Shown: one piece after another, positions 7,599-59,183 of the stretch | How positions within the stretch are numbered: position 1 is the first letter of the stretch | Layout: each line of letters begins with the position of its first letter | Origin: an uncultured Actinomycetes bacterium | GTDB taxonomy: Bacteria > Actinomycetota > UBA4738 > HRBIN12 | Reading direction: 5' to 3' | Assembly: GCA_963786805.1 (NCBI GenBank) | Contig: CAWBAK010000004.1 | Coordinates: 242,043-306,042, forward strand | Length of the DNA: 64,000 bases | Notes under the pieces: generated by a model | What the model saw: the letters and a program-made list of their open reading frames with translations, nothing else | Told to the model about the DNA's origin: nothing | Database searches by the model: none | Translations under genes and position numbers: made by a program

Positions 7599-7985
7599 TC
7601 AGGCATCCGCCCGGTCGATCGCCCGGCGAACCATCTCGACGAGGTCGGCGGGGTCGAAGGGCTTCGTGACGTGAGCGTGCACCTCGGCAGCGTAGCGGTC
7701 GCCCGATGCGCCGTCGCGGTCGGTGCCCGAAAGGACCAGCAGCGGTGTTTCGGTGAGGCCCGGCAGCGATCGAAGCCGCGTCACGAGCTCACGGCCGTCG
7801 ATGTCCGGCAGGCCGAGGTCGAGCACGACCGCATCGGGTGTCTCCGCGGAGGCGGCAGCGACTGCCTGGGCCCCGGTCAGGGCCGTGCGGACCGAGAACC
7901 CCGCGGCCACGAAATTGACCTCGAGCATCCGCACCAAGATCGCTTCGTCATCGACGAGCAACACGAGCGGCGACCTATCCGTCAC
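7599..7985 (-). CDS. Single-domain response regulator (CheY-like receiver only)
   Basis: 128 aa: LVLLVDDEAILVRMLEVNFVAAGF...DAVVLDLGLPDIDG...HAHVTKPFDPADLV. The phospho-acceptor Asp and the conserved Lys are present. There is no output domain. Confidence 0.8.
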   Translation of the reverse strand: MTDRSPLVLLVDDEAILVRMLEVNFVAAGFSVRTALTGAQAVAAASAETPDAVVLDLGLPDIDGRELVTRLRSLPGLTETPLLVLSGTDRDGASGDRYAAEVHAHVTKPFDPADLVEMVRRAIDRADA

Positions 7986-8043
7986 ACACCGAGCATAAGC
8001 GCCGTTCGGCGCGGCGGACCCGATTGCTAGACTCCCTGCGTCC

Positions 8044-8116
8044 GCCCTCGTAGCTCAGCGGATAGAGCACCGGCCTCCGGAGCCGGGGGCGCAGGTTCGA
8101 GTCCTGCCGAGGGCAC
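8044..8116 (+). tRNA. tRNA-Arg (anticodon CCG)
   Basis: GCCCTCGTAGCTCAGCGGATAGAGCACCGGCCTCCGGAGCCGGGGGCGCAGGTTCGAGTCCTGCCGAGGGCA folds as a cloverleaf with a 7-bp acceptor stem, T-loop GGTTCGAGTCC, and anticodon loop CTCCGGA (anticodon CCG). CCA is not encoded. Confidence 0.85.
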
Positions 8117-8181
8117 CCTCGCCCCAGCCGTGCACGCGAAGACCACCACCGTCCACATCGCACTGCTATCGTTCGCTGCCG

Positions 8182-9528
8182 ATGAACGCCGACGAGCTCC
8201 GAGTCGCGATCGCGGAAAACATGCCACGCAACGTGGACGAGCTGTCGCGTCTGGTGCGGATCCCGTCGATCGCGTTCCCGGACTACGACGGAGCGCCCGT
8301 GCGGGCGTCCGCCGAGACTACGGCCGAGATCCTCGAGGCCTCCGGGTTCGGCGACGTTCGGCTCATGGAACTCCCGGACGGCATCGAGCATCCGGCGGTG
8401 TTCGGCGAGGTCCGTGGGCCGGCCGGCGCGCCGACGGTCCTTCTGTATGCGCACCACGACGTGCAGCCCGAAGGCCCGCTCGAGCAATGGACGAGCCCGC
8501 CGTTCGAGCCGGAGGTCCGCGAGGGGCGTCTGTTCGGACGGGGAAGCTCCGACGACAAGTGCGGGATCGTGATGCACGCCGCCGCCTTGCGAGCCTGGGC
8601 AGGCGCACCCCCGGTGACCCTCAAGGTCATCGTCGAAGGCGAGGAGGAGGCGAGTACCGCCCACCTGCCCTTCCTGATCGAGGGCCACCAGGACATGCTC
8701 GCGGCCGACGTCGTCTCGGTTGCCGACGGTGGGAACTGGCGGACGGGGATCCCGGCCCTCGAGACGAGCATCCGCGGTGTCGTCGACTGTCGCGTGACGG
8801 TCCGCGTCCTCGATCTCGCCGTGCACTCGGGCTCGTTCGGTGGCGTGATCCCCGATGCCCTGTCCGCGCTCGCCCGGATCCTCGCGACCCTGCACGACGA
8901 GCAGGGCGATGTGGCGATCGGGGGCCTCATGACGTCGGTCTGGGACGGCGTCCAGATCAGCGAGGACGAGCTGCGCGAGGAGACACCGCTCCGGCCCGGC
9001 GTCCAGCTCATCGGCACGGGGACGATCGCGGAGCGGCTGTGGACGAAGCCGGCGGTCTCCGTCCTTGGCATCGACGCGCCCAGGGTCCGCGAGGCCTCCA
9101 ACCAGCTCGTTCCGGTCGCCACCGCCAAGGTGAGCCTTCGGATCCCGCCGGAGGAGGATCCTCCGAGGGCACGTGCTCTGCTCGCCCGGCACCTGGCCGA
9201 GCACGCTCCATGGGGCGTCGAGGTCTCGGTGGTGGAGGGTGACGCGGGGCAGGGGCTTCGGCTGCGGAGCGATGGGCCCGCGTTCGCCGCGATGGGTCGC
9301 GCGATGGCGCAGGCCTACGGCCGCGAGCCGGTCCAGATCGGATCGGGTGGATCCGTTCCGCTCGTCCCCATGCTGGCCCGGGCGTTGCCGCAAGCCGAGA
9401 TCCTGATCTACGGCGCATCCGACGAGAAGAGCCAGTACCACTCCGTCGACGAGAGCGTCGATCTCGGCGACTTCGAGCGCTCGATCCTGGCCGAGGCCCT
9501 GCTGTTCGGCGAGCTCGGCACGAGCTGA
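8182..9528 (+). CDS. M20 family metallopeptidase (dipeptidase/ArgE-DapE-ACY1-like)
   Basis: 448 aa with the LLYAHHDVQP metal-binding motif, GRGSSDDKCGIVMH, and an EGEEE..S metal ligand region. Confidence 0.85.
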   Translation: MNADELRVAIAENMPRNVDELSRLVRIPSIAFPDYDGAPVRASAETTAEILEASGFGDVRLMELPDGIEHPAVFGEVRGPAGAPTVLLYAHHDVQPEGPLEQWTSPPFEPEVREGRLFGRGSSDDKCGIVMHAAALRAWAGAPPVTLKVIVEGEEEASTAHLPFLIEGHQDMLAADVVSVADGGNWRTGIPALETSIRGVVDCRVTVRVLDLAVHSGSFGGVIPDALSALARILATLHDEQGDVAIGGLMTSVWDGVQISEDELREETPLRPGVQLIGTGTIAERLWTKPAVSVLGIDAPRVREASNQLVPVATAKVSLRIPPEEDPPRARALLARHLAEHAPWGVEVSVVEGDAGQGLRLRSDGPAFAAMGRAMAQAYGREPVQIGSGGSVPLVPMLARALPQAEILIYGASDEKSQYHSVDESVDLGDFERSILAEALLFGELGTS

Positions 9529-9547
9529 CGGTTCGACGGCTGCTACG

Positions 9548-10081
9548 GTGGAACTCGTGGACGAACCCGCCATCCCACCGCCGTCCGCCGGGCAGGAAGA
9601 GCCGGTCGCGCAGGCAGAGCCGGTCCCGCAGGCCGAGCCGGTCGCGCAGGCCGAGCCGGTCCAGATGGCGGAGCCGCCGCAGGAATCGATCACCCAGCCG
9701 GCGAAGCTGCTCCGGATCGCGAGCATGGTTCGCGAGCTCTTGGAGGAGACACGCCAGGCCTCCCTCGACGAGCCCGGCCGGCTGCGGCTGCGCGAGATCT
9801 ACGGCCGATCCGTGAAAGAGCTGGCCGAGGTCCTGTCGCCGGACCTTCGCGAGGAGCTCGAGTCCCTCATGCCCCCGATGGAGGGCGTTCCGTCGAACGC
9901 GGAGATCCGCGTCGCCCAGGCCCAGTTGGTCGGCTGGCTCGAAGGGCTGTTCCACGGGATCCAGGCCGCGCTGTTCGCGCAGCAGGCGGCGGCTCGAGCC
10001 CAGTTCGAGGAGCTCCGTCGCCGGGGCCTGCCGAGCGGCACCGATCCGCAAGGGCCCGACGCCCGCGGGCAGTACCTCTAG
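9548..10081 (+). CDS. bpa: Bacterial proteasome activator Bpa/PafE-like protein with C-terminal GQYL
   Basis: 177 aa with a low-complexity N-terminus of AEPVxQ repeats and a helical body. The extreme C-terminus is ...DARGQYL, the GQYL proteasome-gate-docking motif of Mycobacterium Bpa (Rv3780). Confidence 0.7.
   Translation: MELVDEPAIPPPSAGQEEPVAQAEPVPQAEPVAQAEPVQMAEPPQESITQPAKLLRIASMVRELLEETRQASLDEPGRLRLREIYGRSVKELAEVLSPDLREELESLMPPMEGVPSNAEIRVAQAQLVGWLEGLFHGIQAALFAQQAAARAQFEELRRRGLPSGTDPQGPDARGQYL
9590..9665 (+). repeat. Imperfect 18-bp tandem repeat (about 4 copies) encoding (A)EPV(A/P)Q within bpa
   Basis: gcagagccggtcccgcag / gccgagccggtcgcgcag / gccgagccggtcca... repeats are visible in the sequence. 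Confidence 0.6.
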
Positions 10082-11322
10082 CCTCGGACGAAGCGCCAGC
10101 TGGCCCGCCACGCGGGCAGACCGGTGCAGCTCCTTCCTCGGTCGTCGCCGCAGTCCACCGTGGGCTTACGCCACAGGGCGAGCGAGGCGAGGAACTCCAC
10201 GTCCCCGCACCGGCCGAACCGAAGCGTGTCGACCAGGTCCGCGAAGTCCCGGAGCCGGCGACGGATGAGCGCGCACGCGCGGCCGTTGCTTGGCGCGCCG
10301 CCGTACCAGAGCGCCGTCTCCGCCTGCACCTTCGCGCTCAGGCTCCACCGCATCCACATGAGCATGCAGTTGGGATGCGGGGCGTCGGCCGCGAGCATCC
10401 AGGTGTCGGCCCACCCGGTGATCCCCTCGGCCGGCACGACGGCACCGGCGGAGCGCCCGTTGAGCTCGAGGAGGCTCAGGACGATCGGCCAGCCCGTCCC
10501 GACGACGACTTCGCGCTGGCCGAACCCATCGACCGCGTCCGTGAACAAGCTCCAGTACAGGCCGACCCGTGAGTCGAGATCTCGCAGGAGCGCCGTCGCG
10601 GCGTCGAGCTGATCGGGCGACAATGCGAACGGATCTTCGATGCCGAGCTCGGGACGATGCGCCGCGAGGTACAGCGCCGCGTCCGCGATCGTCATCGGCG
10701 AGTCGAGCAGCGCGATCCGTCCCGCGTACGGGGTATCCGGCTCGTACACCACGTCCCAGCTCCTCGGCTCGGGATCCACGCGCTCGTGATCGAACACGAG
10801 GAGGTTCGGCCCGTAGAGCGCCGGGACGCCGAAGATGTTCCCGTCCACCACGTAGTGGCCGGCGTTCTCCTCGCGGAGCGGTTGGAGGACCTGATCCCAC
10901 GAGGGGAACAGCGCTGGGTCGACCGCGGCAACCGCTCTCGAGGCGATCAACTCCCCCGCCGCATCGCCCGGGACCGACGCGCCGTCGTACGGAGAGTCCT
11001 CCCGCGTAAGCAATGTCACCATCTCCGCCCCCGAGTCCATATACCGAACCTGGACGTCGCATCCCGTCGTCTCTTCGAACGGCGTCACCCAGTCGAACTC
11101 CGGGTCGCTGGATCCGTCCTCGACGTAGCCCGCGAGGGCGAGCACGCTCAACTCCCCCTCACCGTCGCCGATCTCGTCACGAACCTCGACCGGCTGGACG
11201 GGCTCCGGCTCGCTCCCATCGGAAGAACACGCAGTCCCGATGAGGACACCCGCGAGGACGAGCGCCGTCGCGCTCCGCATGCGTGCACGCTTCGGGGTCG
11301 CCGGTCTTCTCCTGCTCACCAT
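10078..11322 (-). CDS. ABC transporter substrate-binding lipoprotein (PotD/PotF-like polyamine family), copy 1
   Basis: 414 aa with a lipobox LAGVLIGTAC and a PotD-like periplasmic binding fold. It is a paralog of the 13116..14354 gene. Confidence 0.85.
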   Translation of the reverse strand: MVSRRRPATPKRARMRSATALVLAGVLIGTACSSDGSEPEPVQPVEVRDEIGDGEGELSVLALAGYVEDGSSDPEFDWVTPFEETTGCDVQVRYMDSGAEMVTLLTREDSPYDGASVPGDAAGELIASRAVAAVDPALFPSWDQVLQPLREENAGHYVVDGNIFGVPALYGPNLLVFDHERVDPEPRSWDVVYEPDTPYAGRIALLDSPMTIADAALYLAAHRPELGIEDPFALSPDQLDAATALLRDLDSRVGLYWSLFTDAVDGFGQREVVVGTGWPIVLSLLELNGRSAGAVVPAEGITGWADTWMLAADAPHPNCMLMWMRWSLSAKVQAETALWYGGAPSNGRACALIRRRLRDFADLVDTLRFGRCGDVEFLASLALWRKPTVDCGDDRGRSCTGLPAWRASWRFVRG

Positions 11323-18551: not shown

Positions 18552-19836
18552 ATGACGGCCGATACGCTGGCCGGCATGGATCCGGCCAGCGTCGCGGAGG
18601 AGCTCCAGTCGCTCACCGAAGCGCAGGCACGGGGCGCCGAGGACGTCGGCGGCCCTCGTCTCGATCCCAACCGAGATCGCATGCCCGCGTGGATCCCGCG
18701 GCTGCTGCTCCTCGTCGTCCTGACCGCATTCGGCGCCTATGCGGCGTTCTCGGTGGTCCGCCGGTTGCGCGATCTCCTCGTGTGGCTCGTCGCCGCCCTG
18801 TTCCTCTCGTTCGCGCTGGAGCCGGCCGTGAACTGGCTCGTGGCCCGCGGGTGGCGCCGAGGCGCCGCGACGGCAGCGGTGCTGTTCGGGCTGGGACTGC
18901 TCGTGCTGATGATGATCGCCCTCATGGTGCCGCTGGTCATCGACCAGGTGCAGGAGCTCATCAACCGCCTCCCGGAGCTGCTCGCCAACGCGAGCGTCTA
19001 CACGGAGCGCTGGTTCAACGTCGAGCTCACCGGCCAGAAGATCCTCGACCGCATCGCCAACGCGCAGACGGACATCCGCGGGATCGCCGCGAACGTGGCC
19101 TCGATCGGGGCGTTCATCCTCAGCCTCGTGTTCCAGCTCCTCACGATCGGGCTCTTCACGTTCTACTTCGTCGCCGACGGTCCGAGGTTCCGCCGGGCCG
19201 TGTGCTCGATGCTCCCACCGCGCCGCCAACGCGAGATCCTCGCCGCCTGGGACATCGCGATCGACAAGACCGGCGGATACCTCTACTCGCGCCTCCTCCT
19301 CGCGGTGTTCAACGCGGGGATCACCTTCGTCGTGTTGCAGGCGCTCGGTGTGTCCATTCGCGGTTCCGCTCGCGCTGTGGCAGGGCCTGGTCTCACAGTT
19401 CATCCCCGTGGTCGGGACGTACATCGCCGCAGCCGTCCCGCTCCTCGTCGCGCTCCTGGAGGAACCCCTGACGGCAGCGCTCTTCCTCGGCTTCGTCCTC
19501 GTCTATCAGCAGATCGAGAACTACGTCCTCGCCCCTCGGATCACGGCCCGGACGATGCAGCTCCATCCCGCGGTCGCGTTCGGCGCCGCCCTCGCCGGCG
19601 GTTCGATCAGCGGCCTGCTCGGTGCGTTCATGGCCCTGCCGGCGGCGGCGGTCATCCAGGCGACGGTCTCGAGCTACCTGACGCGCCACGAGGTCGTCGA
19701 GTCCGAGCTCACGCGAGACGACGAGCTCCCCACCTACGTCGAGAGCGAGGCCGGCGGCGAGAAGGCCGAAGGCGTCCTGGGCCGGCTCAAGGCCCGGTGG
19801 CGCAGGAGCGACGACGATCGACAGATCGGCGGCTGA
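18552..19836 (+). pseudogene. AI-2E family transporter (PerM/YdiK-like), frameshifted near 19352
   Basis: MTADTLAGMDPAS...LFTFYFVADGPRFRRAV...FNAGITFVVLQALGV is followed by a +1 shift into ...PFAVPLALWQGLVSQFIPVVGTYIAA...QQIENYVLAPRITARTMQLHP. Removing a t in ggtgtgTccattc restores ALGVPFAVPLAL. Confidence 0.75.
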
Positions 19837-24571: not shown

Positions 24572-26540
24572 TCAGCCGCTTGCCGTGCGGACGATCTCAC
24601 CGCTCGCCAGGATGACGCCGTCTTCGCACTCGGCCTGGATCAGGCCGCTGCGGAACTGCTGCTCGTAGAGCCGGGCATACAGCCCGCCGCGCTCGAGCAG
24701 CTCCGCGTGGGTGCCGCGCTCGACGATCCGGCCGCGGTCCACCACGAAGATCACGTCGGCACTCAGGATCGTCGAGAGCCGGTGCGCGATCGCGATCGTC
24801 GTGCGCCCCTTCATCAGCGGCTCGAGCGCCGCCTGCACGAGCCGCTCCGACGTCGTGTCGAGCGAGGAGGTCGCCTCGTCCAGGATCAGGATGCGCGGAT
24901 CCTTGAGCAGGACCCGCGCGATGGCGAGGCGCTGCTTCTCCCCGCCGGAGAGTTTGTAGCCCCGTTCCCCGACGACCGTGTCGTACCCCTCGGGGAGCTC
25001 CGCGATCCGGTCGTGGATGTTGGCCGCGCGGGCGGCCGCCTCGAGCTCCTCTTGCGAGGCGTCCGGCTTCCCGTACAACAGGTTCCGACGGATCGTCGTG
25101 TGGAACAGGTAGGTCTCCTGCGTGACGACGCCGATCGCATCGCCGATCGACTCCAGCGCCATCTTGCGCACGTCGAGCCCGTCGATCTCGATCGCCCCTT
25201 CCTGCACGTCGTACAGGCGTGGGACCAGGTACGTGATCGTCGTCTTGCCGGCCCCGGACGGGCCGACGAGGGCCGCCAGCTGCCCCGGCCGGATCTCGCA
25301 GCGAGACGTTCTCGAGCGTCCATTCGCGCGGCACGACGTCCTGGGCGGCGAGGTCGGGCGGCGAGACCGGCGTCGCGCTCTCCTCCGGCGGCGAGTCGTA
25401 CCGGAACCAGACGTCTCGGAACGCCACGCTGCCGCGGACCTCCGTCGGTGCGACGTGCACGGCGTCGGGGGCGTCCCGGATCTCCTGCGGCAGGTCCAGG
25501 TACTCGAAGATCCGGTCGAAGAGTGCGAGCGAGGAATGCACCTCGGTCGAGACCTGCAGCATCGACCCGATCGGGAAGAACAGCCGGGATTGCAAGGTGG
25601 TGAACGCGACGATGTCGCCCGCGGTGAGCGAGCCTCCTCCGTCGCTCAGGACCCAGCCCGCCACCAGGTACACGAGCGCCGGCGTGATCGAGAAGAACGT
25701 CCCGACGACCGCGAAGAACGAGCGGCCGATCATCGTCTGGCGGATCTGGAGTCCGGTCAGGCGTTGGTTCTCGTCCTGGAACCGGTCCACCTCGTACCGC
25801 TGGCGGCCGAATGCCTTCGACAGCAGGATCCCCGAGACCGAGAGCGTTTCCTCGGTGACCGCCGTCAGGTCCGCGAGCGTCCTCGCGGTGCTGGTCGCGA
25901 CCTCGCGCCTCGCGCGGCCGACCTTCACGGTCAGCCACAGGAAGAACGGCATCAGCGCGAGCGAGAGCGCCGTGAGCTGCCACGACAGGATCGTCATCGC
26001 GATCAACGTGCTCGCGATCACGACGACGCTCGACAGGATGTTGGACGTCGTGTCCGTGACGACGCTCTGCACCCCGCCGACGTCGTTCGCCAGGCGCGAC
26101 TGGATCTCGCCGGTCCGGGTGGTGGTGAAGAACCGGAGCGGCATGGACTGCAGGTGCGAGTAGAGCCGGCTCCGCAGGTCCTGCATCACCCGGAGACCGA
26201 CCAGGTTCGCGAGGTAGGTCTGGCCGATCCCGATGATCCCGGTCACGATCGGGATCGCGACCATCAGCCCGACGTACCGGTACAGGAGGTCCAGGTCCGG
26301 ACACGAGACTCCCCCGCACGTGCCCGGCGGGTTCCCGAACAGCGCGTTGTCGAACACCGCCTTGATGAGCAGCGGGTTCACGACGCCGAGACCGGAGGTG
26401 ATCACGATCGCGAGGCCGACGAGCGCGACCTTCCCGCGGTAGGGACGGAACGTGGCGATCACGCGCCGCACCGTGTGCTTGCCGATGGGGCGATCGTCCT
26501 GCTCGTGGGGGACGCGGAACATCCGGCCGTGGCCTCGCAT
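24572..26540 (-). pseudogene. Fused ABC exporter (MsbA-like TMD plus NBD), frameshifted near 25298
   Basis: The 6-TM exporter domain is followed by ...[15 protein letters not shown]...WTLENVSL and a shift. The next frame carries [40 protein letters not shown]...[16 protein letters not shown]...[12 protein letters not shown]. Removing c in ctgCgagatc restores the frame. Confidence 0.8.
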
Positions 26541-36184: not shown

Positions 36185-36218
36185 GAAGGGGCGCCTTGCG
36201 GCGCCCCTTCTGCTTTCG
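36185..36218. terminator. Bidirectional intrinsic terminator hairpin (11-bp perfect GC-rich stem)
   Basis: GAAGGGGCGCC-ttgc-GGCGCCCCTTC is followed by TGCTTTCG on the + strand. It is placed between the 3' end of the small membrane ORF (+) and the 3' end of tRNA-Met (-). Confidence 0.5.
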
Positions 36219-36292
36219 TCGCGGGGACGGGATTTGAACCCGTGACCTCTGGGTTATGAGCCCAGCGAGCTACCGGACTGCTCCACCCCGCA
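36219..36292 (-). tRNA. tRNA-Met (anticodon CAT), initiator-like
   Basis: The reverse complement TGCGGGGTGGAGCAGTCCGGTAGCTCGCTGGGCTCATAACCCAGAGGTCACGGGTTCAAATCCCGTCCCCGCGA gives a cloverleaf. The anticodon loop is CTCATAA. It has three consecutive G-C pairs in the anticodon stem (GGG/CCC) and a weak 1:72 pair, as in bacterial tRNA-fMet. It is near-identical in its core to the mycobacterial initiator tRNA. Confidence 0.85.
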
Positions 36293-36748: not shown

Positions 36749-37831
36749 TCAGATCGCGGGCCGGTGGAACCGCCGACGCTCGAGCGCGCCGACGAGTCCG
36801 AGCAGCACCAGCATGGCGGCCGCGACCCACAACGCGGTGCCGAACGGCCCGATGCCCGCGTCGCCTCCGCGTGTCGCCCCGGGCATGCCCGCCGCTCGAA
36901 GCGACGGCTGCCCGGCACCGCTCGCGTCGATCGCGAGGTCGTACGTGAGGTCTCCGGCACGGGAGTCCAGACGCAGGTAGGTCAGCCACATGCCGCTCCG
37001 CGGCAGCCAGTTCATGCCCTCGTCGGACCTCAGGTCGGCGAGCAGCGTCGTCGACGCCGGCTGGCTCCGCTCCAGGACGAGCCCCGGCGAGGTTCCCGTG
37101 CCTTCCAGGAACGCCGCGGACGACGGAGCGACGGCGCCGGGCAGGATGGCCGGGACGAGATCGGTCAACAGGTACACATCGGCCTCGATGGGCGCGTCGG
37201 CGGTGGCGCCGAGTCCCAGGATCCGCAGCGGCACCCACGGGTTCGTCGTCGGGATGACGACGTGCACCGGAGTGCCGTCGCCGACGTCGAGCCCCTGCTC
37301 CGCGGCGCGACTCGCGTCGAACCGCACGGCCATGAAGATCGGGCTCCGCTCGGCGTAGAAGTCGAGCACCTCGGGAGCGTCGGGCGGGAGGAAGAAGCCA
37401 TGCTCGCGAGCCCAGTTGCCGACCGCCGTGCCTCCACCTTCGAGGACGACGATGTCGAGCGCGTCGATCTTGGTCTTCAGGATCACGTTCGCGCGATCTG
37501 CGGCAAGGAACGCCGCCCCGGCCTCGAGCGCCGCAGGCTGCGGCTGCGTCTCCTGGACGAGGCGCTGGAGCGTCCACTCGCCGCCTCGGATCACCTTGGA
37601 GGGAACGCCGGGGAGCGGGATGATCGAGCCGAACTCGCCTTTCCCGCCGGCGAACTCGAACGACGTGACGTAGTGCTCGACGCCGCGGTGATAGGCAGCC
37701 ATCGTGGTGGTGCGAACGAGCGTCACCGTCCCGTTCGAGTTGACGAGGCCACCGCACGCGAGCGCGGAGCCGGTGAACAGGAGCAGGGACGCCAGCGTTG
37801 CGGTGAGGACGAGCAGCGTTCGCCGGAGCAT
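36749..37831 (-). CDS. DUF2330 domain-containing secreted/membrane-anchored protein
   Basis: About 360 aa, taken from the C-terminal part of track ORF 36749..38503. It has a signal peptide MLRRTLLVLTATLASLLLFTGSALA, a conserved DUF2330-like body, and a C-terminal TM anchor (LWVAAAMLVLLGLVGAL). Confidence 0.65.
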   Translation of the reverse strand: MLRRTLLVLTATLASLLLFTGSALACGGLVNSNGTVTLVRTTTMAAYHRGVEHYVTSFEFAGGKGEFGSIIPLPGVPSKVIRGGEWTLQRLVQETQPQPAALEAGAAFLAADRANVILKTKIDALDIVVLEGGGTAVGNWAREHGFFLPPDAPEVLDFYAERSPIFMAVRFDASRAAEQGLDVGDGTPVHVVIPTTNPWVPLRILGLGATADAPIEADVYLLTDLVPAILPGAVAPSSAAFLEGTGTSPGLVLERSQPASTTLLADLRSDEGMNWLPRSGMWLTYLRLDSRAGDLTYDLAIDASGAGQPSLRAAGMPGATRGGDAGIGPFGTALWVAAAMLVLLGLVGALERRRFHRPAI

Positions 37832-37907
37832 CCGGGACCTCCCAGCGGTCGGGGGCGAGCGATGGGGCTTGGACGACTCGCCGCTCGGGATGGGTTCCCC
37901 GGAACCG

Positions 37908-40796
37908 CTACGGAGTCGGGCTGGGGCTCGGGCTCCCGGTCGCCTCGTCGCCGCCGAGCAGAGCCTGTGCCTGTTCGATCGCCGCCTGCGCCAGCTCGAT
38001 CTCGGACTGGTACGTCGCGAGGTCGCCTTCCCGGAGCGCCGCGTCCGCGAGGGTGAAGTGCTGGGCAGCCTCCTGCAGGAGCGCCTGCACCTGTTCGTCG
38101 ACGGTACCGGTCGGCGGCGGCTGCGGCTCGCCGTCCGGCGGCGGGACTTCGGCTCGCCGAGGGCGTCCGTCAGAGCCTGCGACAACGTGTCGCCGATCCC
38201 GATCGCGTTCCCGTTGACCACGATGACGCGCCGAAGCTCGGGGATGGCGTTGTCCTGGTTCGACTGGACGTACACGGGCTGCACGTACAGCAGCGCGTCG
38301 TCGACGGGGACGACGAGGAAGTCCCCGAAGCGGATCTGTCGACCCGGACTGCCCCAGCAGGGTGCGCTCGCTGGCGAACTGCGTGTCGGCGTTGATCCGC
38401 GCGAACACCTGGGTCGGACCGTCGACGTTGCGCGCCGGACGGGAACTCGTAGCTGACCATCTGGCCGTAGTCCTCGCCCGGATCGGACTTCGCCGTCAGC
38501 CACGCGACCATGTTCTGCCGGTCAAGCGGCGTGAACGGCAGGATCAGCGAGAAGGTCTCTTCGGTCTCCCCCGGGAGCCGCATGAGCACGTAGTAGGGAC
38601 GCATCGGCGGCAGCTCGTGCGTCCTGCTCCTCCGGGTCAGCCGAGGCTTCGGCCGGATCGCCCGGGAGCGCCCAGAAGTCGGCCCTGCGGTAGAAGACGT
38701 CGGGATCGGTCACGTGATAGCTCGTGAACTGCTCGGCCTGGACCTGGAACAGGTTCTCGGGGTAGCGGAAGTGCGCGAGCAGGTCGGGTGTGGCCTCCGA
38801 CATCGGTGTGAACAGGCTCGGGGAAGGCGTTCCCCCAGACCTGGATGATCGGATCGCTCTCGTCGGAGACGTAGTAGGTCGTCGTGCCCTCGTACGCGTC
38901 GACGACCACCTTCACCGAGTTCCGGATGTAGTTCGCCGACCCGGTCAAGCTCGGGAACGTCGCGTCCTCAGGCTGCGAGGCGACGTCCTGGAGCACCACC
39001 GGCTGTGAGTACGGATAGTCGGTCGTCGTCGTGTAGCCGTCCCAGATCCACACGAGGCGACCGTCCACGATCGCCGCGTACGGATCGGCGTCGAACTGCA
39101 GGAACGGGGCCGCCTTCGGCACCCGCTCCTGGATGTTCCGGAAGATCATGATCCGGCTGTCGCCCTGGACCAGGTTCGAGATCAGCAGGTTGACGTCGCG
39201 GAAGCGCCAGGCGAACAGCGCGCGCTGGACGATGCCGCCGACGGGGATCCCGCCGCCGCCGTCGTAGTTGAACGACACCTGCTCCTGGTCGTCCTGCGGC
39301 GTGCCCTGGTAGTCGAGCTCTCGGGCCCCCGAGTTGACGAGGACGAACGGCACGTCCGAGCTCTCGCCGAAGTACACGCGCTGGCCGTTGCCGAGGAGTT
39401 CCGGCTCGCCGCTCGGCGGGATGTCGCGAAGGGTGAACAGCGGCTGGCCCTCGCTCGTCGCCGTGTTGACCTGCGAGGCCACGGTACCGAACCCGTGCGT
39501 GTACACGAGATGAGTGTTCTGCCACGTGCCCCCGCCGGGGATCTGGTTCTGCGCGATCTCGCGCGCCGAAACCATGACGAGGCGGCGCTCTCCGTCGATC
39601 GTGTACCGGTCCACGTCGATGTCGTGGAACTCGTAGTAGGCGCGGATCCGCTGGAGCGCCCGATAGTTGTCGATCAGGATGTTCGGGCGCCACAGGCGGA
39701 TGTTCTGGATCGTCGTCGCGTTCGCCTCGACGTCCTCGGCCGTCACGACACCGGAGAGCGGCTGCTGGCGCGACTCGATCAGGTCGAGCGCGAAGGCCGC
39801 TCGAGTCGCCTCGATGTTGCGAACGATGAATTCCTGCTCGCGCTGGGCCTCCTGCGGGTTCACGCGGAACCGTTGGACGAACGCCGGATAGGCCGCGCCC
39901 GCCGAGATCGAGACGAGGGCGAGCAGGCCGACCGCGATCACCGGCAACGCCCATCCCCGCATCCGGATGTTGACGAGGAACAAGATCGCGCACGCGATCG
40001 CGATGAACACGAGGATCCGGAGCGCCGGCAGGTGCGCGTTCACGTCGGTGAACGACGCGCCCGCGACCACGCCCCGCGACGACGTCAGCAGGTCGAACTG
40101 CCCGAGGTAGTAGCCCCACGCCTTCGTCAGCATGATGAGGCCCAGCAGGACCGAAAGGTGGGCCTTGACCTGCGGCGTCACCTTCTCGGAGAAGACGATC
40201 GCGTTCGGCCGGATGCCGCCCCACAGGTAGTGGGCGAGGGCGGTGATGAGCAGCACCCCGACGAGCGCCGAGAACAGCCACCCCTGGAGGAACTCGAGCC
40301 ACGGGAGCGAGAAGACGTAGAACGCGGCATCCCGGCCGAACACCGGCTCAGGTCTCCCGAACGTCACGCCGCCGGAGTTCTGCCACAGCAGGAAGGTCCT
40401 CCACTGCGCGGAGACGCCGAGGCCGACGAAGAACGCGATCACGGCGGCGAAGACCGGCAGGAGCCACCAGGCGTACGGCTCGAATTGCATCCGGTAGCGC
40501 TCGACGATCTCCTGCTCGGGGGTCAGCGCACGGTACCGGGGCGTGATCCGCCGCACGATCCACAGGTTCACGTACAGGAGCACGAAGAACGTCACTCCGA
40601 ACAGCAGCCCCAGCACGATCTTGGTCCGGAACACCTTCCAGAAGACCTGCGAGTACCCGACCTCGCGGAACCACAGGACGTCGACGAAGAACCCCGAGAG
40701 CGCCGTGAACGCGACGACGATCCCGGCGAGGATGGCGATGACGATGAAGGCCAACCTGCGGCGACCGGAAGCTGCTGCCGGGATGCGAGTGACCAT
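37908..40796 (-). pseudogene. UPF0182 family membrane protein (homolog of mycobacterial Rv3193c), disrupted by about 5 frameshifts in its C-terminal third
   Basis: The N-terminal 719 aa (ORF 38637..40796) are intact, with 7 TM helices (...VLWFREVGYSQVFW...) plus an extracellular domain. After ...VWGNAFP the reading frame changes at about 38821, 38625, 38433, 38338 and 38147. The conserved segments SLFTPMSEATPDLLAHFRYPENLFQVQ, MRPYYVLMRLPGE...YEFPSG, RNVDGPTQVFARINADTQFASERTLLGQSGS, QIRFGDFLVVPVDDALLYVQPVYVQS...ALTDALGEP and VPPPDGEPQPPPTGTVDEQVQALLQEAAQHF...SPSPTP are recovered in successive frames. Confidence 0.8.
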
Positions 40797-40871
40797 GCCT
40801 CTTATCGGGTCGGGTTGTCGGGTCTGGCCGGCGTCAGGGTATCACCGGGCCTTCGGAACCGAGCCGTTCCG

Positions 40872-42242: not shown

Positions 42243-43104
42243 TCACGAGACCTCGGGCGTGATGTCGCGGAGCTCTCGGACGAGCATCTCCGACAGCTGG
42301 TCGTCGTCCCGAAGGCGGCCCTCGAGGTTGTACGCGCCCGCGAACTCGCCGAGACCGTTCCGCGTGGGATCGTCGAGGACCCCGGTCGGCGCATCCGAGT
42401 AGATCCCCCGCGCGGCGAGACGGCGCTGGATCTCTTGCACGAGCTCGGGGGTCGCAGGCATGAGCGGGTCGTTTCGAACCAGGACCTCTCGGTCGTAGAC
42501 GGTGAACACTCGAGCCAGCTCCGTGACGGCCTGCGGATGTTCATCGACCCGAACGTCGACGTACCGATCGCTGCGGCCCTCGTACCCTCCGCCCTCGCGG
42601 ACGACCAGCAGCGCGGCAGATTGCCGCCCGCGGCGATCGCCGCCGGCGTCGTCACCGGCGACGAGCGCGGCGAGCAGCCGGTCGACGAGGTCGCCCGTCG
42701 TACCGGTGAACGCATCGCCCATCGCCGCGACCACCTTCTCGCCCACGAGGATGTTCCCCTGGCAGGCGAAGCCCGGCCCGGTCAGCCCGCCGGCCCACTC
42801 GAGGCAGTCCTGCTCCCGTGAACGTGGCCGGCAGACCCTTCCCGTCGACGAAACCCGCCTGGCGGTCGGCCCGGCCCTCGTCGCCGTGGATCAGCTGGGC
42901 GAGGACCTCGGGGGCGGGTGAACCGGACTCCATCAGGTGCAGTCCCTGCGGACCGAAGTCGGTGTTCGCCCACGCCTGTGTCGCGACGGCTCCGACGCCG
43001 GCCCTCGCGTACGGCACCACGGCGCCGACGGCCAGGAACTTCGATGCGACGGCAACACCCCAGTCGCCGGCTTCGGTGTCGGCGGCCACGATCGAGAACG
43101 TCAC
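42243..43104 (-). pseudogene. DUF1028 family protein (Ntn-hydrolase-like), frameshifted near 42816
   Basis: N-terminal frame: (V)TFSIVAADTEAGDWGVAVASKFLAVGAVVPYARAGVGAVATQAWAN...GFVDGKGLPATFT. Downstream frame: EQDCLEWAGGLTGPGFACQGNILVGEKVVAAMGDAFTG.... Removal of one g from cacgGGag joins them. A GTG start overlaps the mreB stop. Confidence 0.7.
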
Positions 43105-46741: not shown

Positions 46742-49700
46742 CTATGACGTCACCGTAGGACAGATGTTGGTACTCGCGGGATTGAGGATCTTGACGCATG
46801 TGATCCGACCCTGGACCGACGGTGAGATGGGCGTGTTGGTCTCGACGTAGTCGGCGAGGACCTCGTCCATCGTCTTGATCGAGGGCGTGTTCAGCACGCT
46901 GACCAGGTGCGGGTACCCGTCGCCGGCCATCGCCATGAAGTCGTTGATCGCGACCGTGTACGGACCACCGGCACTCGTGAGGTCGATCGGGGCCCCGGTA
47001 CAGGTGCCGTCCGGTGCCTGCCTCACCGCACCCGTCACCCGGCTGCCGACCGTTGCACTGATGTCGTACGTGAAGCAGAGGCCGGAGACCTGCGGGAAGC
47101 GGCCGTTCGCCGTCGGCATCGAGGAGACACCGTTCTCGAGCATCGTCTTCAACACCGCGCCGGAGACGGGAGCCGTCGCCACGACGTTCCCGAACGGCAA
47201 CACGGTCAGCACCTGGCCGAGCGTGATCGGGTAGGGCGGCGGCGTGAACGCCGGACAGAAGTCGCTCGCGTTGTCGGTCGTCGGACACGTGAGGTCCGCA
47301 CGCAAGCCCCCGGAGTTGGTGATCGCGAAGTCCACCGTGAACCCGGGGAACGCGGTCCGCATCGAATCGGTCACGACGTTGCCGAGCAGCGATTCGCACA
47401 GCCGGCTGTCGACGCGGCCGCACTTGTCCGAACGCGGGATCGCCACCGTGGAGGTGCCGATCACCGGGCTGAGGAGCGGTGCGAGCTCGGCGTTCAGCTC
47501 GTCGACCCGCGCCTGGATGGCCGGGTCGGGCGTCACCCCGATGGTCCACGGCTTGTGGAAGTCGGCCGTCTTGTAGACCACCGCCTTCGTGCTCGTGTCG
47601 ACCACGAGGCGAACGCGGGTGAACCGCACGCCCTTGCTCAGGTTCTCGGTGACGAGGATGCCGTTCGGCCGCGTCGAGACCACCTGGAAGTTCGTGTGAT
47701 CGCCGAGCACGGCGTCCACGCCGGTGAGGGCGTCGGCCAGATCGACGACCGGACCCGTCGGGCTCGTGAGCGTTCCGGCCGTCGCCCCGTCGTGGCCCAT
47801 GACGACGATCGTGTTCACGCCGTTGCTCCGCAGGCGGTTGACCTCCGCCTGAACGCGGGGCAGACGAGCCTCGACATGGAACGGGTCGAGCCCGCCCGGG
47901 AAGATGAGCGACACGAGGTCCTCGTTCGAGAACCCGACGAGGCCGAGCTTGACGCCCGCGAAGTTGAACACCGTGGACGGTGACCACTCGGGCGGCGTCT
48001 TGCCATTGGCATTCAGCAAGTTCGCCGAGACGATGGGGAAGTCCGCCAGCGGGATCAGCGTGTTCCTCAGGTACGCAGAACCCTTGTCGAAGTTGTGGTT
48101 GCCCAGCCCGTCGGCCGAGAAGCCCATCATGTTCATGAACTCCATCGTCGGGATGTCTCCGAAGAAGCTCGAGATCGGAGGCGTCGCTCCGACCGAGTCA
48201 CCCGCGGCGACCGTGATCGACCCGTCGGGCGCTTCGCTTCGGTACAGGTCGAACCACGGTTTCAGGAACGCCGAGCCGCCGATCGGGAAGACCGGGTTCG
48301 CCGAACCCCCTCCCGCGAGGGTATCGGCCGCTTCCGCGAGCGGCACCAGCTGGCCGTGGTAGTCGCTGATATCGAGGATCGTGATCGTCTTCCACCGGCC
48401 GGGCGTCGGGAAGAGCTCCGTCAGGATCCGGCCACGCGCGTTCTGCGGCCCCGGGATGTCCATCAGGAACGCGATCGTCGGCGCCACGTCGACGACACGG
48501 ATGCCCTCGACCGGGTCCTGCCTGCGGATCCCGGGTCCCGAGGCGACGAACGTCCCGTGCATGTTCACGTTGTGCTCGAGGTCGACCAGCTCGGGGAAGT
48601 AGCCGTGCTGCCCGAAGAACTGCGAGAAGGCGATCGTCTGTCCGCGTGTCGCCGCGTCGAACTGATACGGGGGCCGCAGGACGACCACGACGTCGCCGCT
48701 CCGGTTCGGATGCAGCGAGTCGCTGCCGTCGACGTCCCGGAGCTCTTCCTTCAAGAGCACGTCCTCGACGACCTGCGCCCCGGGATTCGCCGGGTCGGTC
48801 AGGCTCTCGAAGGCTGCGACGATCTGGCTCCGTACCAAGTCGTAGTCGGCAGCCGGAACCTGCGGGGTGTTCAGGACGTTGGTTGGGGGGCCGGTCTGAG
48901 CCGGGTCTCTGCCGGCGAGGTTCAGATAGATCTGCGCCGCCCCTCCGGCGTAACAGGCCTTCGCGAGCGTGGCACCGGAGGCAGCCTTCCGGCAGTTGCC
49001 CGTCTGCTCCGCCCCCTGGAGCCCCGCGTCCACCAGGACCTTGCTCGCGTTGACCGCGTACCACTGCGGCGCGAAGCCGTGATCGGAGCTGGCGAACACC
49101 GTCGCGTTCGTGCCCATCAGCTGCCGGGCGAGGCCGAGCGTTCCGTCGGCCTCGTGATACGCCGCCTCGATGTACCCCTCCCGCTCGTCGATCCGGCCAT
49201 CGGGGATGTCGTCGTTCGTGAGGTCGTCGAAGTACGGGTTCGGATCGCCATCCATGTCCGTCGGCGTGACGAGACCCATGAACTGGTGCGAGAACTCATC
49301 GGTGACCGGGCTGCCGGCCATCAGCAGGTCCGGTTGCACGCCGAGACCGGGGATCGTGCCGCCGCCGAACTTCGGAACCGGAGCGGTGCCGAGTATGTAC
49401 CTCAGGTAGGCCCAGTGCGCGTCGGCCCAGAACAGGCCCTGCTCGACATAGGTGTCCTCGTCGACGATGCCACCCTCGAGCGGGGCGAAGTCCGCCGCGG
49501 TCGAGGTGGGGAAGGTCGCGTTCAAGGTCTCCTCGAACGCCAGCGAACCCGCGGCCCCCAGGGCGTTGTACGAGGCGTTCGCGCGCGCGATCGAGGTGAA
49601 GTACACGCGGAACTTGGACAGGTCCGGTTCGATCTCGATCGCCTTGACGTAGAACCCGGCGGTCTTGCCCGTGAGGTCTCCGGTCAGCGTCACCTTGACG

Positions 49701-50635
49701 TCCGCCCACTCGTTCTCGGACAGGGTCGCGACGGCTGCCGTTCCGTTCTTGCCTGCCGTCGACGGAACGACCAACACGCTGTCGTAGTTCGTGGCGGAGT
49801 CGTCGGATGAGTCGAAGATGTAGAGGTCGAAGAAGCGATCGACGTTGTTCCCCCCGGGGAACGCCGTGTTCGCGAGCTTGAACTGCTCCTGCATCGCCGG
49901 GCTGAAGCTTGCCGGGACGTTCGTCCACCCCGCTGCCGGGTCGAGATCGACCCGCTGGTAGGCCGTCCCCCCGGTCGTGGTAGCACCGGGCGCCACGTCC
50001 GGGATGAACTGCCGGATGAGCGCCGGCTGACCCGGCAGGTCGTAGTTCAGCAGGACACCGCGGTTGGAGAAGAACGACCGGAAGTCGACGACCGGTCCCT
50101 GGATCGCGGGCACAAGCGCCCTCGACCCGACCCATTCGACCGAGACGACCTTCTTCCCCGCTCGCTCGGCCGCCTGAAGGATGTGGTCCGCCTGGAGGAT
50201 CCCGGTCCCCGCGAAGCTCGACGAGTTGTTGAAGTTCCCCTCGCCCGTTCGGTGGAAGGTGTTGTTCGTCGAACCGTGCTCGCCGGGATAGGCGCCGGTG
50301 GCGAGCGAGTGCCAACCGACGCCGGTGTTCGGCGGGAAGGCCTGGGTCAGCCCATTGTCACCGCGGACCCCGTTCGCCATCAGGTTCGCGTAGGTCGGCA
50401 TGAGCCCGTCCGCTGCATACGTCTCCATGAGGTCCGGACGCATGCCGTCGGACGCGAAGAAGATCACCTTGTCGGCCTTGGGGCGGCCTCCGCCGGATGG
50501 CTTCCCCTGCTTCAGGGCGCCGGCGGGCACGGCGACGACGAACGCCGCGATGACTGCGAGCGCGACCAGGATCGATCGGGTACGGGAACGGACGACCATC
50601 GCGAGCTCCTTCCGCGGGCCTGAGCCCTCCGACAA
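46742..50635 (-). CDS. Secreted bifunctional nucleotide pyrophosphatase/phosphodiesterase (alkaline-phosphatase-like core) fused to UshA-type 5'-nucleotidase/2',3'-cyclic-nucleotide phosphodiesterase
   Basis: 1297 aa, single intact ORF, with signal peptide [28 protein letters not shown]. The N-terminal half has the NPP/AlkP-core motifs ([13 protein letters not shown]...; ...FASSDHGF...). The C-terminal half has the calcineurin-like metallophosphatase motifs ([26 protein letters not shown]) and a 5'-nucleotidase C-terminal substrate-binding domain. Confidence 0.85.
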
Positions 50636-58534: not shown

Positions 58535-59183
58535 TCAAGCGTCCTCGAACAGTTGCGGCTCGGTGAGATGGCGGACGTCGTTCAGGAACCGGACCTCGCG
58601 CCGGTCGCCGTCGACCCCGATCACGCTGATCGACGTGTTCTCCGGAAGGAAGAACATCTCCTGCTCGAGTCGGAGCAGTGGCGCCACGTAGGCGTTCACG
58701 ACCCCGCCGTGACAGAACACGTACACGTTTCCCCGCGGATGCTCGGAGAGGGCGCGCTCCACACCGGCCAAGACGCGCGCCCGGAAGGCCTCCAGGTCCT
58801 CGGATCCCAGGAGCGTGCCGCCAGAAGGCTTCGTGATTGCGGAAGCTGTGGAGCAAGGCCTCATCGCCCCCGAGGATCTCTTCGAAGGTCCGGTTCTCCC
58901 AGTCGCCGATGAACGCCTCGGTCAGGTCCATGTCGTATCCGACACCGATGCCCGCCTTGTCCGCGTACGCGAGGGCGGTCTCGCGGGCGCGTCGAAGCGG
59001 CGAGCTCACGATCGCGGCCGGCGGGTCCATCTGGAGCAGCCGCCGCGCGAGGCGTTCGGCCTGGTCCCGTCCCTCCGCCGCGAGCGGCGGATCGTACTGA
59101 TCGCCGCGCGGCGTCGAGGCGAAATCGTCGTTGTCCAGGTCCGAGCGTCCGTGCCGGATCAGGTACAGGACCCGAGCCGTCAT
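58535..59183 (-). pseudogene. Histidine phosphatase family protein (phosphoglycerate-mutase-like), frameshifted near 58807
   Basis: N-terminal frame: MTARVLYLIRHGRSD...PPLAAEGRDQAERLARRL...SSPLRRARETA... (the RHG catalytic motif). Downstream frame: (G)SEDLEAFRARVLAGVERAL...VYVFCHGGVVNAYVA.... Removal of one g from ctggGatcc joins them. Confidence 0.7.

Follow-up and report, generated by a model that had tools for sequence, protein, structure and literature searches.

The closest described counterpart of the gene presented here is the proteasome activator Bpa (PafE) of Mycobacterium tuberculosis. In this protein, the helix H0 and a GxxxGxxxG motif in helix H4 are described as determinants of dodecamer packing (PMC13066552), and mutagenesis has attributed the recruitment of HspR to residues H131, F138 and R145 (PMC11953334). 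The linker to the docking motif corresponds to residues 155-166, and the terminal Y173 and L174 contact R26 and K52 of PrcA (PMC11953334; bioRxiv 10.1101/249060). The initial 35 residues show disorder in cryo-EM and emanate from the ring face toward the 20S (PMC11953334). Constructs devoid of this tail, spanning residues 31-146 and 36-139, are still dodecameric and substrate-binding (PMC13066552, PMC11953334), and the published Bpa work that we consulted on the tail assigns no function to it. The bpa gene has been reported only in actinobacteria carrying prcAB, and invariably at a great distance from the Pup-proteasome locus (Delley et al. 2014, PMC4254994).

The window analysed here, meaning the whole stretch of 64,000 nucleotides from an uncultured Actinomycetes bacterium, carries a gene of this family. 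We are highly confident that it is an ordinary and intact Bpa/PafE copy from an uncultured soil actinobacterium, which is the best explanation of the gene. As an uncharacterised addition to a well-known family, it is recognisable by automatic annotation; the main worth of the finding is a correct annotation, and it leaves the current understanding of these activators unchallenged.

Identity, extent and surroundings of the gene

The mechanical open reading frame at 9548..10081 (+) encodes 177 aa from a GTG and closes with ...DARGQYL ahead of a TAG. In Pfam-A, its product belongs to the family BPA (PF10759, formerly DUF2587, 'Bacterial proteasome activator') with 176.7 bits and E=3.3e-52, far above the gathering score of 29.5 bits, the match spanning positions 7-139 of the 161 in the profile. 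With phmmer against all PDB chains, M. tuberculosis Bpa provided the sole matches (6bgl, 5lzp, 8rgx, 5lfp, 5lfj, 5iet and 5ieu), with E-values from 3.6e-42 to 5e-38; the alignment with 6bgl_B (E = 3.6e-42) pairs query residues 46-176 with residues 39-173. Identity to the mycobacterial protein amounts to 57% across the aligned region and to 60% within the helical core. More than 8000 homologues were present in a large protein collection, all with PF10759, some of them named 'proteasome activator' by NCBI. NCBIfam is without a Bpa model, and its lone match to the Bpa-like protein was an insignificant mevalonate-kinase one. Neither a second bpa copy nor another GQYL protein was found in the 64-kb window.

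A preliminary description, made from the letters of this DNA, had proposed a Bpa/PafE-type activator and had made that proposal depend on a profile search against Bpa/DUF2587 and on similarity of the helical core to Bpa. Both speak in its favour. The helical body and disordered N-terminus that it predicted agree with an AlphaFold2 model of the 177-aa translation, which was built on a shallow alignment and places helices at residues 51-70, 75-95, 100-106 and 117-159. In this model, pLDDT falls below 50 at residues 1-43 and in the last ten or so residues, and no helix is placed at residues 160-173, where pLDDT is low. A Foldseek search of the modelled monomer against the PDB returned no Bpa chain and nothing at E <= 0.001. 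The GQYL motif that the same description emphasised stands at the extreme C-terminus, a position where 143 of the 145 retrieved homologues share it, and the 16 nearest sequences all keep RGQYL (16/16). The glycines of the GxxxGxxxG motif are G129, G133 and G137 in the 177-aa numbering, and the segment QPAKLLRI is likewise invariant. The counterparts of mycobacterial H131, F138 and R145 are H136, F143 and R150 (H133, F140 and R147 when the protein is counted as 174 aa), all of them invariant.

The most likely start of translation is the GTG at 9557, nine nucleotides inside the mechanical frame, which would give a protein of 174 aa beginning with MDEPAIPP. This choice follows from three agreeing observations. 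An ATG occupies the counterpart of position 9557 in the close relatives L082-L084 and in L081, which is more distant; a Shine-Dalgarno-like GGTGGAG is kept a few bases 5' of that ATG in L081-L084; and the NCBI/ENA protein P0001, of 174 aa, shows 100% identity to the product read from 9557. The reading frame first described thus exists with the ending then given, but its start at 9548 probably has to yield to the internal one. The features of the locus are collected in Table 1.

Table 1. Features of the bpa locus, with positions counted from the first letter of the window.
Feature	Position	Strand	Basis and remarks
M20-family metallopeptidase/dipeptidase-like gene	8182..9528	+	28 nt upstream of bpa; Pfam Peptidase_M20 and M20_dimer; NCBIfam PRK07907, 543.9 bits
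Putative Shine-Dalgarno-like site GGTGGA	9547..9552	+	4 nt upstream of GTG 9557; GGTGGAG in L081-L084
bpa/pafE coding sequence, 174 aa and stop (probable start)	9557..10081	+	Pfam BPA; PDB matches to M. tuberculosis Bpa; identity to P0001; ATG of relatives
Acidic, proline-rich N-terminal tail, predicted disordered	9557..9685	+	43 residues with 9 D/E, 0 K/R and 11 P; pLDDT <50
Tandem repeat of 18 bp (hexapeptide)	9593..9682	+	QEEPVA, QAEPVP, QAEPVA, QAEPVQ and a degenerate MAEPPQ
Helical core (H0/H1-H4, predicted four-helix bundle), predicted ring-former	9698..10024	+	AlphaFold2 helices with pLDDT 80-94; 60% identity to the M. tuberculosis core; near-invariant in relatives
GxxxGxxxG motif (GWLEGLFHG) in H4, putative inter-protomer packing	9932..9958	+	Invariant in 16/16 sequences
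Flexible linker from H4 to the docking motif (GLPSGTDPQGPDAR)	10025..10066	+	Low pLDDT; length and sequence vary among relatives
C-terminal GQYL, HbYX-type putative 20S-docking and gate-opening motif	10067..10078	+	Direct reading; followed by TAG at 10079-10081
ABC-transporter solute-binding protein gene, convergent	10078..11322	-	Pfam SBP_bac_8; stop overlaps the bpa stop

The action of selection on the gene was evaluated by a codon comparison with L082, a near relative in which the gene order is unchanged and the M20 neighbour is 92% identical. Across the 131 codons of the core and C-terminus, 16 differences are synonymous and 1 is non-synonymous, so that purifying selection acts strongly on both helical body and docking motif. 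The 43 codons of the tail hold 10 non-synonymous and 10 synonymous differences; constraint is relaxed there while the acidic, proline-rich composition stays.

The order M20 - bpa - ABC transporter - DHODH is kept in the clade of the window (L001-L014, L081 and L082-L084) and is missing, as regards the M20-bpa block, from Acidimicrobiia, Mycobacteriales, Streptomyces and the other loci examined. The ABC solute-binding gene, with an NCBIfam YdcS match below the cut-off, has the same arrangement in L081 and L082. Several clade members show a gap of about 800 bp between the M20 gene and bpa. Because the adjacency is confined to the clade and such gaps occur, we read it as lineage synteny rather than an operon of functional meaning; a link in function between M20 peptidase and bpa, for example in the salvage of proteasome peptides, is conceivable but unsupported. 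Co-transcription of M20 and bpa is possible, and a scan for promoters and terminators around bpa found no promoter and no relevant terminator. Further out lie housekeeping genes for ArgRS, a response regulator, tRNA-Arg, DHODH and transketolase. Among the matches listed, the nearest genomes are soil MAGs of uncultured 'Actinomycetes/Actinomycetota bacterium'.

Other features of the window deserve mention in their own right. The only Rfam/ARAGORN matches are a tRNA-Arg(CCG) at 8044-8117 (+), between the response-regulator and M20 genes, and a tRNA-Met(CAT) at 36218-36292 (-). An open reading frame of 1297 aa at 46742-50635 (-), unrelated to bpa, joins an N-terminal type I phosphodiesterase/nucleotide pyrophosphatase to a C-terminal 5'-nucleotidase, and its product is probably a multifunctional nucleotidase, either secreted or located at the surface. 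The gene of an AI-2E family transporter at 18576-19722 (+) carries a frameshift near 19351: with the intact 420-aa orthologue of L081 as tblastn query, the match runs in frame 3 for residues 1-262 and passes to frame 1 for residues 262-385. This may be either a pseudogene or an indel error of the assembly. A UPF0182 gene at 36752-40841 (-) also looks frameshifted. The open reading frame 38637-40796 covers positions 3-632 of the 770 in the Pfam profile, and the C-terminal part (PRK00068 821-911) is found in another frame at the start of the open reading frame 36749-38503, fused to a DUF2330 match. Three further open reading frames match only the C-terminal part of a domain (ABC_tran at 24572-25207, DUF1028 at 42243-42746 and His_Phos_1 at 58535-58864). 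These split and partial-domain frames suggest that the assembly of the window carries multiple indel errors; bpa is intact.

Two Bpa homologues are binned in non-actinobacterial phyla, L015 (QHTE01000124.1, 63% identity) as 'Candidatus Rokuibacteriota' and L076 (JBLNEK010000275.1, 54%) as 'Candidatus Sericytochromatia', and both end in the C-terminal region of the family. Both lie on short contigs, of 3.4 kb and 27 kb respectively, with 64-67% GC. Mis-binned actinobacterial contigs are the likeliest reason for this placement, and horizontal transfer may be another.

The N-terminal tail and its hexapeptide repeat

The preliminary description had noticed an imperfect 18-bp repeat at the N-terminus and had regarded it as a candidate for length polymorphism. 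The repeat is real and far beyond chance. TRF reported a period of 18 bp at 9592-9661, with 3.9 copies, 92% matches and a score of 112, and the self-identity of the repeat at a lag of 18 reaches 48/52, the top value for any in-frame lag across all 64 kb of the window (99.9th percentile, 33).

The copy number was compared in proteins sharing at least 88-95% identity with the query, whose tails differ by whole six-residue units. Four hexapeptide units are present in P0001 and P0121, three in P0125, P0003 and P0141, and about 2.5 in P0129, P0131 and P0008, which supports the suspected length polymorphism among lineages that are closely related. Insertions and deletions in the tails of relatives are always in-frame and comprise whole or half units. 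At about 70-85% identity, relatives have one AEPV within a tail of the form PQPP...AEPVE...PQESIT, and the tandem (Q)AEPVx array of 2.5-4 units is confined to the immediate clade of the window. Among homologues called full-length, the tail measures 17-46 residues, and a single truncated entry has 9.

The repeat is an expansion, specific to this clade, of one ancestral AEPV motif within a tail under relaxed constraint. Replication slippage of the ancestral AEPV, in a disordered region tolerating changes of length, would be the simplest and most likely explanation of the repeat, and its copy number would most likely drift with little functional consequence. The natural series of 2.5-4 copies among near-identical proteins offers ready variants with which the relevance of the Bpa tail could be tested.

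The predicted 20S partner, alternative readings and a possible mechanism

The preliminary description had also taken the gene to imply a 20S proteasome encoded elsewhere in the organism. A Pfam scan of about 57 open reading frames found no prcA/prcB, Pup, Dop, PafA or ARC in the 64-kb window, and tblastn with M. tuberculosis PrcA and PrcB, as queries exactly matching the PDB sequences, had no match in the window, nor in any of the 80 related bpa loci listed. The missing prcAB is expected, since bpa is not linked to the Pup-proteasome locus (PMC4254994). A 20S proteasome elsewhere in the source genome is plausible, because of the strict co-occurrence published for the two (PMC4254994) and the purifying selection acting on the core and GQYL. 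The gene very probably marks this uncultured soil Actinomycetota lineage as proteasome-bearing, with a degradation route independent of ATP and Pup.

Several other readings of the locus have to be weighed against that of an ordinary activator. The most radical would deny the gene altogether and attribute its frame either to chance in GC-rich DNA or to the shadow cast by a gene of the opposite strand, where long open reading frames of 367 aa (9008..10111) and 583 aa (7975..9726) do cover the same region. Yet the codon-position GC of the bpa frame (0.81/0.46/0.90) is that usual for true genes in this window of 69% GC, with the third position bearing the coding signature, and a codon-bias filter did not select the antisense frames, which are high-GC artefacts. 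Thousands of homologues, the Pfam match and relatives with solved structures already refute this reading, to which we give practically no credence. Alternatively, bpa could be an orphan relic of a lineage that lost its 20S, now decaying or repurposed for another partner. The window indeed yielded no proteasome genes, and neither did the surroundings of bpa in the listed loci of relatives; however, bpa is reported only together with prcAB and always unlinked from it (PMC4254994), and the strongly constrained core and invariant RGQYL argue that a 20S partner exists. We regard a relic as highly improbable and retain an activator with a probable partner elsewhere in the genome.

Another alternative concerns the tail, which would form a functional and tunable module, an acidic brush turned toward the 20S alpha-ring to modulate docking, gate access or substrate selection, its copy number tuning activity between lineages. 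The acidic and proline-rich composition and the AEPV motif persist in many relatives despite sequence drift, the tail indels are all made of in-frame whole or half units, and the disordered 35 residues of the mycobacterial protein lie on the 20S-facing side of the ring (PMC11953334). Against this stand the equal numbers of non-synonymous and synonymous differences in the tail (10:10), its variation in length among full-length homologues, the retention of dodecamers and substrate binding by the mycobacterial constructs without a tail (PMC13066552, PMC11953334), and the Bpa work consulted, which gives the tail no function. A functional module therefore seems unlikely. That the (Q)AEPVx expansion would be adaptive, as a slippage-tunable regulator of 20S docking or substrate access whose copy number sets the strength of proteasome activation, is in our estimate very doubtful. 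Slippage in a tolerant, disordered tail is the reading that we prefer.

A mode of action for an ordinary activator can be proposed after the ring, GQYL and substrate binding of M. tuberculosis Bpa (PMC11953334, PMC13066552, bioRxiv 10.1101/249060). Twelve four-helix-bundle protomers would make up a wide-pored dodecameric ring, packed via H0 and the GxxxGxxxG motif of H4. The flexible linkers would then allow the GQYL tails to enter the inter-subunit pockets of the 20S alpha-ring, where the docked Tyr and Leu would contact R26 and K52 of PrcA, the alpha-subunits would rotate and the gate would open. Substrates in an unfolded or partly unfolded state (in mycobacteria, for instance, HspR) might bind to the aromatic and basic His/Phe/Arg lining of the ring, from which they would be threaded in and degraded without ATP or Pup.

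Comparison with described activators

Bpa/PafE of M. tuberculosis (Rv3780; PDB 5LFJ, 5LFP, 5IET, 5LZP, 6BGL and 8RGX) and the protein of the window share their Pfam family and their length of 174 aa and, at 57% identity, what is predicted to be the same architecture of a disordered acidic N-terminal tail, a helical core with GxxxGxxxG, a flexible linker and a terminal GQYL. The His, Phe and Arg in contact with the substrate are also conserved. The two differ in the N-terminal tail, which in the window is built of tandem (Q)AEPVx hexapeptides and is unrelated in sequence to the mycobacterial one, and in the H2-H3 loop, which is 2 residues shorter. The genomic setting, in which an M20 peptidase gene precedes bpa and an ABC transporter gene converges on it from downstream, is unlike that of M. 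tuberculosis. The mycobacterial protein has been characterised by experiment.

The AAA+ proteasome interactors of actinobacteria, Mpa/ARC and Cpa, are ATPases of about 600 aa and larger, and Mpa/ARC takes Pup-tagged substrates; the Bpa of the window, with its 174 aa, lacks an ATPase domain and has no homology with them. The resemblance to the eukaryotic activators 11S/PA28/PA26 and PA200/Blm10 is one of functional analogy, as ATP-independent rings or domes whose C-terminal tails open the 20S gate. These eukaryotic activators share neither sequence nor fold homology with Bpa, a dodecamer in which four-helix bundles surround a pore of about 40 A and which uses an HbYX-type GQYL.
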